A stretch of DNA of 64,000 nt, taken from the IMG/VR virus record IMGVR_UViG_3300010352_001575, positions 94,206-158,205 of that record, one strand, 5' to 3'. Of the stretch, positions 2,345 to 44,204 are shown in pieces. The stretch comes from a virus. The translations under genes and the position numbers were made by a program. Position 1 is the stretch's first letter, and every line of letters starts with the position of its first letter. The notes under the pieces were generated by a model. That model was not told the origin of the DNA and did not search any database. It worked only from the letters and a program-made list of their open reading frames with translations.

Positions 2345-2979
2345 TGTTCTGCTGCGACAAAAAGAAAGACAAGCACCTTACAGAAGAAACCGCCAATAAA
2401 TTTGGTGTTTTTTGCCGGCACTCTAACCCTGAATTTGACTTTAAGCAGTTAAACGATGTACCTGAGGACGCGCTCATATTCACAGTCAAAGGCCTGTCAG
2501 GTCGCACAGTAGGCTATGGCGCGCGAAACGACAGACATCCCTGGCTGTACCGGCCCATAACTCCGGGGCTAACTACAGGATATTCGCTATTCGGCGTAGA
2601 CCTGACCGCGGACGAAATAATAAACGAGCAATACGCCATTCTGGTAGAGGGCGCCTTCGATGCTATGATTCTATACCAGGAGGGCATAAAGAATGTCGTA
2701 GGAGGCTATGGCGTTCGTTTAACGCAGTGCCAGGCCGCCTTGCTGGCTAGTCTGTGTCCTACTGTTTTTGTTATGTACGACGCAGACAAGGCTGGGGTGC
2801 GCGCCGGGTACGAGTCTATCAAAATGCTTCGTGATATGGGCACGAAGGTAGTTATAGTATCCGGACACGACAAAGACCCAGACGAGTACATTTTAGAACA
2901 CGGAGCCGATAAGGTACTAAAACTATGCTTGGATCAATTGGACAATACCGAGTCAGACCAGCTTCAAATGCGCCTTTAG
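2341..2979 (+). CDS. DnaG-like primase catalytic core (Toprim), without zinc-binding domain
   Basis: Toprim motifs ILVEGAFDA, MYDADKAG, KDPDEY; upstream LIFTVKGLSGRTVGYGAR resembles the DnaG RNAP domain. Confidence 0.85.
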   Translation: MMFCCDKKKDKHLTEETANKFGVFCRHSNPEFDFKQLNDVPEDALIFTVKGLSGRTVGYGARNDRHPWLYRPITPGLTTGYSLFGVDLTADEIINEQYAILVEGAFDAMILYQEGIKNVVGGYGVRLTQCQAALLASLCPTVFVMYDADKAGVRAGYESIKMLRDMGTKVVIVSGHDKDPDEYILEHGADKVLKLCLDQLDNTESDQLQMRL

Positions 2980-3482
2980 ATTGGTACTTGGTTAGGCTAT
3001 ACACTCCTAAGCTAATTCACTCAGCAGCCAAAGACCTACACGACTTCCCGCTGTGGGTTCCGTCTACTATGTATGTGGCGCCATCATATAAGCGCCAGGT
3101 GACCAAATACTCGCCTATATGGCCTGAGTACATTTTGGTAGGTATAACCAATCACGCTAAGCTGGTTCAGCTGGACAAGGTTATACGCCATTCCAAGATA
3201 GCCGATGCCAGGTTTGTGCCTACCAAAATATCTGATGAAGATGTTGCCTGGCTGGATGGTAAGTGCCGCAAGCAGCTAGCCACCAAAAGCTTGTCCCTAA
3301 AGACCGGCAGGGATGTAGAGCTGATTTCCGGCCCGTTTACAGGGATACCTGGCCGAATCACTGCTAGCTATGGCAGCTGGATCACAGTACGAATACGGCT
3401 TGGTTGTGTACAATATTATATAAAAATATTAAAAAGTAGAGCTATAGCGCTATTATCGCCCTCTACAGCGTATAAAAAATGA
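2925..3482 (+). CDS. nusG: NusG/RfaH-family transcription elongation or antitermination factor
   Basis: NGN-like WYLVRLYT and PIWPEYILV; C-terminal KOW motif GRDVELISGPFTGIPGRI. Confidence 0.8.
   Translation: MLGSIGQYRVRPASNAPLDWYLVRLYTPKLIHSAAKDLHDFPLWVPSTMYVAPSYKRQVTKYSPIWPEYILVGITNHAKLVQLDKVIRHSKIADARFVPTKISDEDVAWLDGKCRKQLATKSLSLKTGRDVELISGPFTGIPGRITASYGSWITVRIRLGCVQYYIKILKSRAIALLSPSTAYKK
3408..3441 (+). promoter_or_regulatory. Repeated AT-rich motif, copy 1 (candidate late promoter)
   Basis: GTACAATATTATATAAAAATATTAAAAAGTAGAG, inside the 3' end of nusG, 37 nt before ORF 3479. Confidence 0.6.
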
Positions 3483-9418: not shown

Positions 9419-9450
9419 TACAATAATATATAAAATTATTGAATATAGAG
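9418..9450 (+). promoter_or_regulatory. Repeated AT-rich motif, copy 2 (candidate late promoter)
   Basis: GTACAATAATATATAAAATTATTGAATATAGAG, beginning at the terL stop codon. Confidence 0.75.
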
Positions 9451-9484
9451 ACAATTTTGATATTACCGGAGCAGGCGCACACAA

Positions 9485-12400
9485 ATGGCTAACGAAAACG
9501 AGTCGCAAGAAATCACAGACACGTACTTATCTAAGCAAAGTGCAGAAAACCCCAAAGCAAGCAGTGTATCTAGCGGCATTTACGCCGTACTAGAAAACGC
9601 ATTAAATGACGCTATTACCAACGCTGTAGAGCAGGCGTCTACGAGATACATTCATAGGGACCAAAGCAAAAGCCCTGAAATATCTGCAGAAATATCTGAG
9701 AACATAGCTAAGTCTGCACAACCTGGAATACGCGCTGGTCTATCTGAGATTGGTATTCCAGCAAACACTGTAGTTAATTTCGGGGATAAACGCGGCACTA
9801 TGACCGCGCTAGATATTGTGACAGAGGTGCTTCAGAACTTTTCATACAACATTGTCCACGCAATGCTGCGCCTTGGGCCTCCGGCCAGTGCAACGGACGA
9901 AAAAGATAGCAGTGACCAAATATCTCCTGCGCAAAGCACCTATGCAGACTGGATGAAGCACATAGTCGACGAGATTACCTCTCAAGTAAACGTATCGTTA
10001 GCTAGCGGAAAGGGAGTAGATGTTCTACTCGCGAACATCAAAGATGCTGGAGACAGGCTGGCCAATTTCACGCCCAACCACGTCAAGTACCTGCTGACTC
10101 ATCCAGAGTCGATATCGGAAAAGCAAGCTAGGAAAGCTGCCTCGGACCTAGAAAAAAACAGCCAGCTAATAAACGCGCTTCAGGTGTTTTTGTCTGTTAT
10201 TGACTTGTATGTATCGGGACTTCCAGAGGAATTTTACCAGTTTAACGAAGTCGTATCTGACATATCTTCCGAGGATTTTACAGAAGTTTCGCAAGCGATG
10301 GTTACCGAGGTAACAAATGCTATTCAAGTAGTCCAGGCCACATCGAAAGCTAACGCCGCGTTTGAGAGCCTGCTGTCATACTACATAATCGACAATCCTG
10401 ACAAGCGCACCTACAAAATACCGGATATGGCCGTGTATCTAGTGTATTACATTCTGTCCCAAGTTAAGGACGGAACAGGAAATCCTGTAATATCTCAGGA
10501 TCAGTTTGACAAATTTAAAGAGACAATATCTAAATACGGCCGTCTAGCGATTAGCAGGCCGGATGCCGACAAGGCCGCGGGCAGGCTAGGGTACCCAGAG
10601 CTTAGAAAGCAGCTAATGGCGGATTTGTTTAAGGCCAAGTCTCCCGAAGGAGAAGATGCCGGCACCTACGATTTAGTGACTACAACTGTTGATGATATTT
10701 TTGGAACATCAGAGCTAGACGAGACTAGCAGGAGTAACTGGGAACTTAAGGCGGCGCCTGCTCTTGGAGACAAATCCAGCAAGTATACTAATGCGTTTAG
10801 GTATGCACTAGGCGTGTCTCTATATGGCCTTGTTAAAGGGGACGCAGTGACCTTAGGCGATCCAAACAAGCCCCGCGGGTCCAAGACGGATGTTCCGGAC
10901 TTTAAAATAAAACCATCGTTATACGACCTTATCCGGTTGTTTAGCGCGTATGCTAATGGTGATATAAACTCTGCGGCTAAGTTTATGATCGATCTAGCGC
11001 GTAGCGATAAATACTCCGCGGATGTTTTGGTAGAACAGATCAAGCGCGCCGATGCCAGAACCATACAAGCATACGGTCTATCTCAACCGAGTTTGCTAGC
11101 CGGAACAAGTCGACAAAAAATAAGCGATTCAATGTTCATAGAGTCATTTAGAAAAGATATGTTGTCCTTGCTAGAGTCCGAAGACGTTATGACTAAGGTA
11201 GGCGAGGCTAAGCGCCAAGGAGAGCTAGACCGCAGAGAAGCACCTGCCGAGCTTAAGACCGAGTTTCCTAGAGCAGAAGTAACTGATGATGGCAAGAATG
11301 CTGCAAGCATACGCTCGATGCTAAACGAGCGCCTGAAAGCGATTCGCGATTTCAAGGCTGCACCTATAGCCCGGCAGTACGCAGATGAATCTCTAAGAGT
11401 AGCGACAGAGTCCATACTGGCTAAGCCTACTGATGCAAAGCTGCAGGGTCAGTTCAAGGGCTGGCAGTCGAAGCACCCTGAAGTATCGTTCGAGCTGCCT
11501 GAGGTTGATTTAGGCAGTATTCCCACAAATCAGGTGTTAGGCTTCTTGGGAGAAGTTTCCAAACTTAGCCAGCATAAGCTCAGAGAGGCGCTGCGCTTCT
11601 TTCTACTCACCAGCCCTTGGGGGAGCGGCGTACGCAAACTAAGCGACAAGCCATTAGCCGAAATCGTGCAAGGGTTGAGGACAACGCTAGGGCCTGTGTT
11701 TAATTCTTTGACTGATTATGAGTGGTCCAACATAGCTAGGGAAATATCTAAAAACAAAGCAGAACCCTCTAGGCCAGGCTCGATAACTAGAAAAGAGCTG
11801 TATGGCTACGCGAGCATGCTATCGGACATTATGAAAGACATCAGCAATCAGCCGCTTTTGCTGCGGTCTGCGAAGTTTGCAGGATTGCTGGTTTCATGCC
11901 TTACCAGGCTTTTTCCTCCTAAGCTATTAGCTGCCTTGGGCTTTTCCGAAGGCGCAGATATCAGCAACGAGGACGCGCAAAACTTGCCCGAAGTATATAA
12001 GACGCTTATGTCTGTGCTGTCTGACGACAAGAAAGAAAGCGAAGAAACAGGGGTATCAGCAGCTGATGCTGCGGCCGCAGTCAAAGAACTAGACGCCCAA
12101 TATCGTGTAGAGAAAGGACTACCGCCTGACGCCCCGGTAAAACGAGAGCCGATGAGCGGAACGGACGTAAAGCATAACGAGATGTACGAAAAGTTGTTGA
12201 CTCGCGGTCCAGACGCCGACGAGAAAAAGAAGGCAAAAGAATCAAAAGAGGAGAATATGACGGAAGAAAACAAACCCAATCCTGAGGGACCTGCACCGAT
12301 TCAAACCGAGTCAGCTGTCCTTAGCAGGAATTCAGAATTTGACGCAACCAACGGTCCTTGGGAGCTACACCAGGAGGCCTCAGGTAAGAAGAAATTCAAA

Positions 12401-15863: not shown

Positions 15864-15896
15864 GTATAATATTATATAAAATTATTAAATATAGAG
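15864..15896 (+). promoter_or_regulatory. Repeated AT-rich motif, copy 3 (candidate late promoter)
   Basis: GTATAATATTATATAAAATTATTAAATATAGAG, 5 nt after the portal stop. Confidence 0.8.
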
Positions 15897-40556: not shown

Positions 40557-41446
40557 GCACCACGACTGATGGCTTAACTGTAGTAGACCAGCGGACTATT
40601 GCGCGCGGTACTGGTGCGTACGATACTTTTGACGCAGAGCGTGCCGCCGCATCTGTTTCTGCTGTTGTAGACGCCAACCACGTTACTTATGTTCCGTATG
40701 TGCCTGCAACCGGTTTAGGTGATTACGCCCTGTCAGTGGTGTCTGGAGGCAGCCGGCTCACCTGGTATGGTACTCACAAGCCCGCAGCAGCGGTGTTGTA
40801 CACAGTAACATACACCTGCCACGCGTCTCTTTTGTTTAAGGGCGTAGATTTTATCAAGACAGCCATAGTGAAGTGCCTACGGGTCGCGTACACCGTCCAG
40901 CCGTTTTACACCGATTTCGTATACAACGCTAGTGATGTTCAGACCAAGATATCCATACTGCCAGCGTGGCCTAACCGGGTATTTAAGACTCCTGCCATAA
41001 TAGTATCGGTAGCCCCGGGTGGCGCAATGGAACCAACGCACCTAGCTCAGAACGAGAGCATAGCTATCGTAGAGGACGAGGACGGGAACCCATCCAGCGC
41101 GGTATCTTCCGGTGGTATGGGTATTCCGATATCGATAGAAATAGTTTCTACTCGCAATTCCGACATATGCAAGCTATGCGATTTGACCGTTTTGTTTTTA
41201 AGAACTTTGTTTACCTGGCGGCTGAGCAATTATGGTATCAGCTTCAAGAACATCACTATCGGTGGAGAGGACACCGCCGTTATAAACAATCAAACCTATT
41301 ACAAGATAGCTATATCATTTACCTGCTACACAGAGTATCAAGTAGCACTTCCTATTGCCTTAGTAGACACCATTAACAAAACAAACTTCAAGCTATACGA
41401 CACAGAAAGCGATTTGTTGTTAAACGAGTACGATACACCAGTGTAG
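40553..41446 (+). CDS. Putative tail terminator/completion protein
   Basis: ISILPAWP...PAIIVSV, directly before the sheath module. Confidence 0.5.
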   Translation: MSTTTDGLTVVDQRTIARGTGAYDTFDAERAAASVSAVVDANHVTYVPYVPATGLGDYALSVVSGGSRLTWYGTHKPAAAVLYTVTYTCHASLLFKGVDFIKTAIVKCLRVAYTVQPFYTDFVYNASDVQTKISILPAWPNRVFKTPAIIVSVAPGGAMEPTHLAQNESIAIVEDEDGNPSSAVSSGGMGIPISIEIVSTRNSDICKLCDLTVLFLRTLFTWRLSNYGISFKNITIGGEDTAVINNQTYYKIAISFTCYTEYQVALPIALVDTINKTNFKLYDTESDLLLNEYDTPV

Positions 41447-41450
41447 TCCA

Positions 41451-41483
41451 GTATAATATTATATAAAATTATTAAATATAGAG
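41451..41483 (+). promoter_or_regulatory. Repeated AT-rich motif, copy 5 (abuts tnpB)
   Basis: GTATAATATTATATAAAATTATTAAATATAGAG, identical to copy 3. Confidence 0.8.
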
Positions 41484-42611
41484 TTGCACACGCACAATAT
41501 GAAACTGGTTTTCAAATACACGGCGTACGCCAACAAGCTAACCCAGCGAAGATTTAATGAATCTGCCGGGTTGTGCTGCGATTTGTACAACTTAGCCCTG
41601 GAACAGCGTATAGCTGCGTTTAAGTCCGTGTGTAGCCGGTCGGTGTCTAAGTACGATCAGCAGAACGAATTACCAGAGTTTAAAAAAGCAAATCCAGAGT
41701 TTTCTGGTGTGTATTCTCAAACGCTGCAAAATGTGCTTATTCGTTTAGACAACGCTTTTCAGAGTTTCTTTAAACGCTGCCAGGCACACGAGGCACCTGG
41801 ATTCCCGAGATTTAAGAGCAAAGATAGGTATACCACTATTGTGTATAATACTTCTGGGTACACGATTCGTGGAAAGTATATCACATTCTCCAAGCTTGGT
41901 ACCTTTAAGCTAAAGCTCTCTCGGCCTATACTAGGAGACATTAAGTGCGTTACGCTTACAAAGAAATCCAACGGAAAATTTCAGGTAGCATTCAGCTGCG
42001 ACAATGTTCCTACTAAAATTTTGCCAATAACTGGCAAAGCGATCGGCTTAGACCTCGGATGCACCGATATCGTTTCCGATTCTGCCGGTATAAAAACTGA
42101 GAATCCCAAATTTCTAAAAGTATCGCAAGAAAAGCTTAGAAAATTGCAAGCAAACTACGCAAGCAAAAAGACAGCTAAAGCTCGTAAGTGCTTAGCTAAA
42201 CTGCACGAAAAGGTAGCCAATCAGCGAAAGGACTTTCTGCACAAGCTTAGCCGAAAGTACATAAACGAAAACGATTTGATTTGCGTTGAGAAACTTCAGC
42301 CACAAAAGCTGGCGGATAAGTCGTACAAGAATATTCGTAAATCAATGATAGAAGCATCCTGGGCGATGTTGCTACAGCAACTTCGCTACAAAGCAGAATA
42401 CGCTGGTAGAGACATAGTTGAAGTAAACCCCAGGAACACTTCAAAGATGTGCAGTGACTGCGGCGAACTAGTTGAAAAAACACTAAGCAACAGAATACAT
42501 AAATGCAAATGTGGCCTTAGCATAGACAGAGATGTTAACGCCGCTAAGAACATATTAAGGGCCGGGCAGGCCCCTATCCGAAAGGATAAAATCCTAAGCC
42601 TAAAAGCTTAA
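41484..42611 (+). CDS. tnpB: IS200/IS605-family TnpB RNA-guided nuclease (orphan, no tnpA in window)
   Basis: N-terminal HTH (LYNLALEQR), PGFPRFKS, RuvC-I GLDLG, RuvC-II CVEKL, Zn finger CSDC...CKC, RuvC-III DRDVNAAKNI; all three acidic catalytic residues are present. Confidence 0.95.
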   Translation: MHTHNMKLVFKYTAYANKLTQRRFNESAGLCCDLYNLALEQRIAAFKSVCSRSVSKYDQQNELPEFKKANPEFSGVYSQTLQNVLIRLDNAFQSFFKRCQAHEAPGFPRFKSKDRYTTIVYNTSGYTIRGKYITFSKLGTFKLKLSRPILGDIKCVTLTKKSNGKFQVAFSCDNVPTKILPITGKAIGLDLGCTDIVSDSAGIKTENPKFLKVSQEKLRKLQANYASKKTAKARKCLAKLHEKVANQRKDFLHKLSRKYINENDLICVEKLQPQKLADKSYKNIRKSMIEASWAMLLQQLRYKAEYAGRDIVEVNPRNTSKMCSDCGELVEKTLSNRIHKCKCGLSIDRDVNAAKNILRAGQAPIRKDKILSLKA

Positions 42612-42640
42612 GAATGCCAAATATAGAGATATCTTCAGGA
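42559..42640 (+). ncRNA. Predicted 3' part of the TnpB omega/reRNA (scaffold, right end, guide)
   Basis: Hairpins GGGCC-GGGCA-GGCCC (42559-42573), TATCC-GAAA-GGATA (42575-42588) and TAAGC-CTAAAA-GCTTA, ending ATGCCAA at 42620, similar to IS605 right ends (...ATGTCAA); guide would start at 42621. Confidence 0.55.
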
Positions 42641-42647
42641 GGATAGA

Positions 42648-44204
42648 ATGTCAACATTTTTACCCGGCTTCACCCGGCCGAGATCAGTAGTTTTTCAACA
42701 GGTAGTTTCCGCAAATCCTGCCCTTGTTTCGTTGTTCCCCGCTTGCTTTATCGGCGCCGGAGACAGAAAGAAATGGTATTCCCGTACCCTAGCCGCCGGC
42801 GGCACTGCTTACGGAGCTGAAGTAACCAAAGGTTCTGGAGCTTCTGATGTGTTCTATTCGACTGCAGCTCTAGCTGACGCGGATATGAATGTGTCCATCT
42901 TCGACAAAGATCAGAATGAGTACGTGATGGATGTCGATTGGCAGTTGTTAACCAACACAGCTGGCGTTAACTCCATTGAGTGGTTGACTAGCTCTGTGGC
43001 GCGTGCCCCAATCACTGGTGCGCTATACTATGCCAACTTCAAAATTCCTAAAGTTCCTGTGGTGGACTACCTGCCTCGCAGATTTACAACCTTAAAAGAC
43101 CAGTACGACTGGTCTGGAGAGCCGGGCTACGGAACGCTAGGCGAAGATGTGAACGGTTCCTACCTGCTTAACGGCGCCTCTTGGGGCCCTACCGTCGGTA
43201 TGGCCAATGGCCTGGGCGAGTGGTGGTCAGTAGAGCTAGACCCGTACGACGAAACCACGTACCTATCTCCTGGTGGCATCGAGCTAATTGGCACAGGCAC
43301 TACAATAGATGATGTGTTCACGACCGAGGGAAATCTTCTCACGGCGTTCACACAAGCGCTGACCAAGATTATGGCTATCAAAACTTGGGCGGTTGTGCCA
43401 ACCTTCCCGATGACCTCTACAAAGAGCGCGGGCGCTCAGTACACAGAAGTTAATAAAACTCTGTTGCCGGTTCTCAAACAGCACATCAATGACGCTAGGT
43501 CCATCGCCCAGCAGAAATTCCGCGTAGCGCTTATTGGCGCACCGGTTGGTTCTGACACGGGTATGACCGATCCGACACTGCTATACACCGATGCTCAGGC
43601 AGCTATGGTAAGCCGCGCAATGTCATACTGCGCGCCGTCCACTCCTCAGTATCTGTTCGAGGGCTACCCCAAAGATGTCGATGGTTCTATGATTGCTTCC
43701 GCAATTGCTGGTATAGCGTCTAACCCGAACTTCGACCCGGGCGAGCCAATTGCCGGAAAGCAGCTAGCTGGTTTCTACTCAATACCAACTATCTTCAACA
43801 CTCAGCAGGTTAACCGTCTGGGAGTTGCTGGTGTTCTGCTCGTCGATAGCGTGACTTTCGGAACCCCGGCTGTAATGCTAGACTGCACGACCGACCAAAC
43901 TTCCGGAGTTGCCAGCCAGCTAACATACACGAAAACCGCAGACTTCCTGTCTGAGTCTATTAATGACGCTATCAACAAGGCCGTCATTTACTCTAGAAAT
44001 ATCAAAGGTAGCGCGGCGTCTGCTGTAACGAGCAATGTTACCACGTTGCTGGACAAGGCTATGGAGCTAGGCTTGATAAACGCATATACTCCGGTAGCAG
44101 TGCAGACTAACCCCCAGGAATCCAGGCAGCTAGATGTGGCTACGACTATCACAATAACTCCTCAGATACTGTGGACGTACACTAAACTGGGTATCCAGAT
44201 ATAA
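42648..44204 (+). CDS. Tail sheath protein
   Basis: MSTFLPGFTRPRSV N terminus; C-terminal sheath motifs DGSMIASAIAG, EPIAGKQL, VNRLGVAGVLLV, TTDQT; AGGAGG RBS. Confidence 0.9.
   Translation: MSTFLPGFTRPRSVVFQQVVSANPALVSLFPACFIGAGDRKKWYSRTLAAGGTAYGAEVTKGSGASDVFYSTAALADADMNVSIFDKDQNEYVMDVDWQLLTNTAGVNSIEWLTSSVARAPITGALYYANFKIPKVPVVDYLPRRFTTLKDQYDWSGEPGYGTLGEDVNGSYLLNGASWGPTVGMANGLGEWWSVELDPYDETTYLSPGGIELIGTGTTIDDVFTTEGNLLTAFTQALTKIMAIKTWAVVPTFPMTSTKSAGAQYTEVNKTLLPVLKQHINDARSIAQQKFRVALIGAPVGSDTGMTDPTLLYTDAQAAMVSRAMSYCAPSTPQYLFEGYPKDVDGSMIASAIAGIASNPNFDPGEPIAGKQLAGFYSIPTIFNTQQVNRLGVAGVLLVDSVTFGTPAVMLDCTTDQTSGVASQLTYTKTADFLSESINDAINKAVIYSRNIKGSAASAVTSNVTTLLDKAMELGLINAYTPVAVQTNPQESRQLDVATTITITPQILWTYTKLGIQI

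Follow-up and report, generated by a model that had tools for sequence, protein, structure and literature searches.

A transposase-less tnpB cassette upstream of the tail sheath gene of a large sludge phage as a candidate RNA-guided homing element

The stretch of DNA analysed here (64,000 nucleotides (nt), positions 94,206 to 158,205 of IMG/VR record IMGVR_UViG_3300010352_001575; hereafter the window) belongs to a viral contig of 177.7 kb, approximately 90% complete, from a large sludge phage. Within the window, a tnpB gene lies between a promoter-like motif and the tail sheath gene, and the 1145-bp insert to which it belongs sits in the tail of that motif and now parts it from the sheath gene, which it would originally have driven. 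The insert is best explained as a cassette of tnpB and an omegaRNA, without transposase or left end, that appears to descend from IS608-like elements of the IS605 group, and a natural relative of the phage carries the same locus without it. The features of the locus are as follows.

41453-41483, + strand: copy 5 of the promoter-like motif, complete (ATAATATTATATAAAATTATTAAATATAGAG); presumed driver of tnpB and, by read-through, of the sheath gene
41472-41475, + strand: TTAA, candidate target-adjacent motif (TAM) beside the guide-matching sequence of the empty allele; read from the sequence
41474-41483, + strand: left copy of the 10-nt junction repeat AAATATAGAG, which is the tail of the motif; exact match
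41484-41498, + strand: 15-nt leader TTGCACACGCACAAT before the tnpB ATG, with no left-end hairpin and no Shine-Dalgarno sequence
41499-42611, + strand: tnpB, 370 amino acids (aa), with its ATG at 41499 and its stop codon at 42609-42611
42480-42620, + strand: predicted omegaRNA scaffold, from covariation and reduced synonymous divergence (dS); the 5' boundary is approximate
42559-42573, + strand: omegaRNA hairpin GGGCC-GGGCA-GGCCC, which covaries
42575-42588, + strand: omegaRNA hairpin TATCC-GAAA-GGATA
42595-42610, + strand: terminal omegaRNA hairpin TAAGC-CTAAAA-GCTTA, followed by AGAATGCCAA; the stem differs among relatives
42612-42620, + strand: right-end terminus GAATGCCAA; the transposon-encoded motif is CCAA here and TCAA in relatives
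42619-42628, + strand: right copy of the 10-nt junction repeat AAATATAGAG; exact match
42621-42640, + strand: predicted guide ATATAGAGATATCTTCAGGA, positioned from the right-end boundary; a 16-nt version ends at 42636
42648-44204, + strand: tail sheath gene (phrog_279, 3e-11)

The gene product is recognizable as TnpB by its OrfB_IS605 (PF01385, E = 7e-19) and Cas12f1-like_TNB (PF07282, E = 4e-24) domains, both above the curated Pfam cut-offs, and by its match to phrog_506 'transposase' (2e-93); a Pfam match to HTH_OrfB is weak. The RuvC triad (D185 in GLDLG, E264 in VEKL, and D345 in DRDVN) and the zinc-finger cysteines of the CxxC...CxC type (C318, C321, C336, and C338) are invariant in all six aligned TnpBs, i.e., that of the window and its five closest relatives. 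Among four related TnpBs that are 80-85% identical (those of relatives L002, L006, L008, and L014), the ratio of nonsynonymous to synonymous divergence (dN/dS) is 0.14-0.18; as judged from these sequences, tnpB is under purifying selection. Its GC content (42.6%) is 5-9 points lower than that of the neighbouring genes (48-51%). It is the only tnpB in the whole 177.7-kb genome, and a search of that genome for the Y1 transposase gene tnpA (PF01797, E<=1) was empty, while control genomes were positive. A canonical left end (a hairpin and a GATGAATTGG box) is likewise absent between the motif and the tnpB ATG, because the 15 nt available (41484-41498; at most 23 nt) leave no room for it. Thus, the first-pass annotation, which was made from the letters of the window and described an orphan tnpB directly behind motif copy 5 with neither tnpA nor left-end hairpin, proved accurate. 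At the other side, the tnpB stop codon is separated from the sheath gene by 36 nt. It should be noted that the leader of tnpB, TTGCACACGCACAAT, is similar to the final part of the leader that precedes the gene at 9485 (...GGCGCACACAA, then ATG; window 9427-9484), and that both genes lack a Shine-Dalgarno sequence, while the sheath gene has AGGAGG.

The right end of the insert can be placed at 42620, and the guide from 42621, because the similarity among relatives stops after a conserved terminus. Behind the stop codon, the sequences of the nearest TnpBs (61-64% identity; P0005-P0009) read GAATGTCAA, GAATGTCAC, or GAATACCAC and are unrelated beyond, and the tnpA-bearing relatives (L041-L043, also L087) end in GAATC, a hairpin, and then GAGTGTCAA; the consensus of the terminus is GA(A/G)TGYCA(A/C). 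The limit of similarity agrees in six phage relatives and four canonical IS605 relatives, and the right end (GAATGCCAA) and guide start proposed earlier both hold. Upstream of this terminus, the hairpin at 42559-42573 shows compensatory changes in six of seven pairs (nine sequences), and nine of ten elements, L013 being the exception, have the terminal hairpin but with stems that differ in sequence. Moreover, in pairwise comparisons of L002, L006, L008, and L014, dS over the last 66 codons of tnpB is below that of the first 300 codons in five of the six pairs, and clearly below it in four, a drop that is expected of an overlapping RNA. No Rfam family matches the region. The predicted guide overlaps the start of the ribosome-binding site (RBS) of the sheath gene (AGGAGG, 42637-42642), and it matches the genome over 20/20 nt nowhere but at its own locus; elsewhere, the longest contiguous seed is 9 nt.

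A second right-end-like terminus, GAATGTCAA, is found at 42646-42654, 34 nt past the right end, where it overlaps the sheath start codon; the relative described below has GAATGGCAA at this position. Nine-nucleotide sequences of this type occur at chance frequency (10 in 355 kb), and the probability of such proximity, noticed post hoc, is approximately 0.001-0.002. The true right end was considered at this second terminus and rejected, since the empty allele keeps the stretch and such sequences are at chance level. The sheath protein begins with MSTF, as does the open reading frame (ORF) that restarts behind the L002 cassette (see below).

The same locus without tnpB occurs in nature. Two activated-sludge sequencing runs (X1 and X2) contain the phage itself, and a third sludge run (X3) contains a relative with 1.5-5% differences. 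A 359-nt contig from X3 follows 41438-41473 without differences, i.e., the end of the upstream gene and the motif, and then 42619-42941, so that 1145 bp are skipped, with 10 nt, exactly those of the junction repeat, ambiguous in placement. The empty allele therefore reads, in order, full motif, TTAA, a 20/20 match to the guide, and the sheath RBS, with no listed difference within 42621-42640; an element-free relative of exactly this construction (motif plus sheath leader, TTAA plus perfect guide target) had been predicted in the first-pass annotation. The repeat AAATATAGAG, which had been reported at 41474-41483 and 42619-42628, is exact at both places and also at 15887; with one mismatch allowed it is not rare in itself (9 matches vs. 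5.5 expected), and its placement at both junctions is considered real because the natural contig deletes exactly 1145 bp between the copies. Joints at 41483 in run X1, whose sides were short (23-34 nt), were attributed to cross-talk among motif copies and set aside, and no exact match to the rebuilt empty junction was found in IMG/VR. In a distant relative (L011/L012, sheath 40% identical), a 301-aa gene is followed by a 61-nt spacer with a similar motif and then the sheath gene, with no tnpB between them. This arrangement, together with the lower GC content of tnpB, indicates that the absence of tnpB is ancestral and that the cassette is an insertion. The X3 allele, for its part, may have kept the ancestral state or may have lost the cassette later, by deletion between the two 10-nt copies.

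Presence and absence at one locus in close relatives, with an empty allele that contains the predicted nuclease target, is the pattern of a homing gene. Of the two models put forward in the first-pass annotation, an RNA-guided homing or competitor-cutting nuclease is the best reading because the right end and the empty allele were borne out and the nuclease residues are intact. We lean towards the view that the insert is a TnpA-independent, RNA-guided cassette that homes, counteracts its own loss, and also harms cassette-free competitors in mixed infection; we infer a TTAA TAM, cleavage, and homing itself from the arrangement of the locus. In such a scheme, the cassette would be transcribed from motif copy 5, with read-through supplying the sheath gene. 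The last approx. 140 nt up to 42620 would fold as the omegaRNA scaffold, and the next 16-20 nt from 42621 would serve as the guide, so that the TnpB-omegaRNA complex would be aimed at the tnpB-free allele (...TTATTAA followed by ATATAGAGATATCTTCAGGA...). Such alleles might come from co-infecting relatives or from sister genomes in which recombination between the 10-nt repeats has removed the cassette. Repair of the cut empty allele from a tnpB-carrying genome would then copy or restore the cassette without TnpA, and the outcome would be homing, cutting of competitors, and policing of the cassette's own loss. The carrier should be immune, since GCCAA rather than the motif's ATTAA stands before the right copy of the target and the left copy matches the guide over only 8 nt.

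This reading agrees with what is known of TnpB, which cleaves vacant donor joints and thereby drives transposon retention (10.1101/2023.03.14.532601). According to a 2026 review (PMC13565253), TnpB-dependent, TnpA-independent spread has been shown in plasmids (PMC11870625, as summarized there, its ref. 89), and the phage case is theoretical. TnpB is also reported to process its own mRNA into omegaRNA (PMC10278001); that such processing cuts the transcript at the sheath RBS, as had been proposed for this locus, is speculation.

The closest TnpBs help to place the cassette. A blastn search of the locus against GenBank phages returned only a 53-nt match, single-sequence scans of IMG/VR with the TnpB and the sheath protein found no close relatives, and profile scans of IMG/VR and metagenome contigs added to the finds of the protein search only relatives at <=47% identity. 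The TnpBs at 61-64% identity all lie on phage-like metagenome contigs, at different sites. None of the six phage cassettes (window and relatives) has tnpA, and the left end is missing from all of them except L013, the closest relative, in which it is a decayed remnant. L041-L043, which are 44-47% identical, have a Y1 tnpA, a left-end hairpin, and a TTAY flank. L002 and L008 derive from phages that are approximately 80% identical in DNA but carry tnpB at different places, with reciprocal empty sites. Removal of the cassette from its host sequence restores, in L006, the ATGA by which a 170-aa ORF and a RuvB-like gene overlap and, in L014, a 204-aa RNase_T-like ORF whose stop codon overlaps the start of the following gene, again as ATGA; in L002, two ORFs fuse into one of 1224 aa. 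The junctions show microhomology of 10 nt in the window, 6 nt in L006, 4 nt in L014, 2 nt in L002, and 0-3 nt in L008. The sequence at the left joint is TTAA in the window, L008, and L002, TCAA in L014, and CTA in L006.

Two of these relatives deserve further description. In L002 (418-1760, compared with L008 2309-2671), the upstream part of the split 1224-aa gene ends a few codons into tnpB, and the downstream half restarts at ATGAGAATG, with an ATG that lies inside the right end and overlaps the tnpB stop codon. The interrupted gene has a diverged internal repeat of approximately 115 nt that flanks the cassette on both sides; its interpretation as a target duplication was dropped, as removal of the cassette gives the continuous 1224-aa ORF and an internal repeat is likelier. 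L013, by comparison, comes from a phage related to the window's genome: it shares the promoter motif, and its flanks match that genome at approximately 15.5-17.9 kb, but its tnpB is at a locus other than the window's. In its cassette (L013 1201-1255 and 2339-2400), the left end is decayed (TAGCCA...GGATGATTCGG, with the hairpin lost), and the right end is followed by the motif tail TTAAATATAGGT, 3 nt, and a complete promoter motif. The L013 cassette may be a decaying copy.

Several observations weigh against the homing reading. The empty allele is known from one 359-nt contig, at a depth of 3.2 and with 36 nt on its left side, and the 10-nt repeat permits such an allele to arise by repeat-mediated deletion with no need for nuclease activity. 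TnpB cleavage is highly sensitive to the TAM, and the TnpB of IS608 was inactive in the assay of the same study (10.1101/2023.03.14.532601); the lineage of the window resembles IS608 in its right end (TCAA) and its target (TTAY). A left end is recognizable in seven elements (that of L013 being a remnant), and these have TTAY, not TTAA, 7-10 nt upstream of the CCAAGAA box. The TTAT of the empty allele is 3 nt out of register with the guide. An attempt to derive the TAM from the nucleotides immediately before the CCAAGAA box was abandoned, as they give no consensus and TTAY appears only at that distance further upstream. The terminal omegaRNA hairpin is lost in L013, the closest relative. Furthermore, insertion without target-site duplication, as is typical of IS200/IS605 elements, is not what the locus displays, since a repeat stands at both junctions and one copy in the empty allele; the chemistry of these elements does not yield a 10-nt junction repeat, which may stem from microhomology-mediated capture or from gene conversion of the split motif by another motif copy.

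Much of this would suit an inert hitchhiker, i.e., an IS605 remnant, stranded without tnpA and left end in a harmless co-transcribed spot, whose complex does not form or requires another TAM, and for which the tnpB-free relative is either ancestral or a product of repeat deletion. The absence of tnpA and of a left end, the canonical TAM (TTAY, not TTAA), the inactivity of IS608 TnpB in assays (10.1101/2023.03.14.532601), the degraded terminal hairpin of L013, and the possibility of precise loss via the 10-nt repeat without any nuclease all fit this explanation. However, a remnant should gather stop codons and lose the right-end sequence behind its own stop codon, whereas six lineages at different loci keep an intact ORF, the D-E-D triad, the zinc finger, and a covarying RNA module, and dN/dS is 0.14-0.18. 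In addition, the changed location of tnpB among related phages needs some mechanism of mobility. An inert remnant is thus possible, but we doubt it.

If the homing reading is extended to the relatives, it is tempting to describe them as a phage-adapted lineage of RNA-guided free-standing homing genes that has shed tnpA and the left end, so that the unit of mobility extends from the tnpB ATG to the right end. Entry would rely on microhomology, which amounts to 2-10 nt at four of the five junctions and is not certain at the fifth, and the cassette would remain silent within operons, as the target's start codon or promoter tail is re-used and the right end gives a restart ATG; drive and loss policing would follow from cutting of the rebuilt site. 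This generalization is tentative and is held with less confidence than the reading of the window itself.

The second model of the first-pass annotation, a domesticated regulator, has to be weighed against the distribution of the promoter-like motif. Its core, TATATAAAATTATT, occurs in seven copies in the window (six exact and one with one mismatch); with up to two mismatches there are 13 matches in the window vs. 0.6 expected, and genome-wide there are 10 copies, nearly all directly upstream of genes. Copy 5 is identical to copy 3 (15866-15896) over 31 nt. We infer that the motif acts as a promoter; a sigma-70 and terminator scan of the + strand yielded nothing exceeding shuffled controls. As a regulator, the TnpB-omegaRNA complex would bind the tails of late-promoter motifs through an 8-9 nt seed behind TTAA or TTGA and tune late transcription without cutting, as TldR does. 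The first 8-9 nt of the guide do match motif copies at 9443 (TTGA plus 9 nt) and at 15889 and 41476 (TTAA plus 8 nt), as the first-pass annotation had noticed, and in L013, too, the right end is immediately followed by a motif tail (TTAAATATAGG). RNA-guided transcription factors that resemble TnpB and are encoded by phages (TldR) are known to exist (PMC13418256).

Although these matches are real, most of the 15 sites in the genome that match at least 8 nt of the guide lie off the motif copies: only 3 of 10 motif copies have such matches, vs. 12 non-motif sites that match equally well. Any insertion into a motif copy brings matches of 8-9 nt with it, and these can thus be regarded as its by-product; moreover, the motif tail in L013 is equally explained by shared descent from an insertion in the motif. 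The guides of four other family members are unrelated to any promoter motif. TldR proteins have lost the RuvC catalytic residues or the C-terminal nuclease part, whereas RuvC is intact here. A short-seed promoter regulator is very unlikely on these grounds, and this part of the first-pass annotation has no support.

It might also be asked whether the insert has been co-opted to alter expression of the sheath gene, through bicistronic timing or dosage or through competition between omegaRNA maturation and the sheath mRNA, with the nuclease being irrelevant. Such a role would be in keeping with the position of the insert between the sheath gene and its promoter motif, with the failure to find a + strand terminator between tnpB and the sheath gene, with the guide that abuts the sheath RBS, and with the restart ATG that the L002 right end gives to the split downstream gene. 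Nonetheless, the insert is missing both from a relative at 95-98% identity and from the distant relative L011/L012, and the conserved catalytic residues and RNA scaffold would be left unexplained, which makes an expression module quite unlikely.

Compared with IS200/IS605 elements of the IS608 type (H. pylori IS608 and G. stearothermophilus ISGst2), the cassette shares the TnpB domains, an omegaRNA that overlaps the 3' end of tnpB, a right end of (T/C)CAA, and a guide drawn from the DNA that flanks it; the canonical relatives found here end in TCAA, and so does the right end of IS608. It differs in having neither tnpA nor left-end hairpin, in its 10-nt junction repeat and TTAA rather than TTAY flank, and in its position inside a phage late operon, on the coding strand. 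With TnpB-driven restorative homing (10.1101/2023.03.14.532601) and plasmid spread (PMC11870625, as described in PMC13565253), it has in common a guide that matches the vacant site, a carrier protected because the element separates TAM from target, and the expected copying by homologous repair. Here, however, the replicon is a lytic-type phage, the vacant allele is that of a natural relative rather than a product of TnpA excision, and the case is built on sequence.

The free-standing homing endonuclease genes of T-even phages (Seg and Mob; intronless homing) likewise place a nuclease gene between conserved phage genes, are present or absent in close relatives, occupy different sites in related phages, and are tightly packed, with overlapping start and stop codons. 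In contrast to these, recognition by the cassette would rely on an RNA guide and a TAM instead of a protein, and self would be distinguished from non-self by the insertion itself, not by substitutions in a neighbouring gene. The TldR of prophages (PMC13418256) resembles the window in being a phage-borne TnpB relative with a guide that touches a promoter region, but in the window RuvC is intact, the guide matches the motif over 8-9 nt and then continues into the sheath leader, and there is no sign of a host target.

Neither solo tnpB in phages, which is common (tnpB matches were found in 440 phage records), nor TnpB homing, which is established, is new. Less documented is the combination of a lineage that mostly lacks left ends and is packed into operons, an empty allele in a natural close relative, a pair of phages with reciprocal empty sites, and microhomology at the junctions. 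The locus is a natural test case, in which the guide, an empty allele from the wild, the basis of self-immunity, and sister cassettes elsewhere can all be read from sequence. If cleavage is confirmed, it would represent an RNA-guided gene drive between competing phages and provide a compact 370-aa nuclease whose TAM might be shifted; should cleavage fail, the locus would be an ordinary stranded tnpB of the kind common in phages.

Two further observations concern the surrounding sequences. The contigs of run X1, from the source metagenome, break within the 3' region of tnpB (42529-42562), and one of them agrees with the window up to 42562 and diverges beyond, which suggests a second tnpB-like element in the same sample that shares the conserved GGGCCGGGCAGG region. 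Finally, the L013 contig contains a phage-encoded tmRNA at 2787-3173 (Rfam RF00023, 132 bits), whose homologous region in the window's genome lies at approximately 15.5-16.0 kb, outside the window; upstream of this tmRNA are a sigma-70-like promoter and an 88%-conserved stretch of approximately 150 nt (L013 2495-2640).

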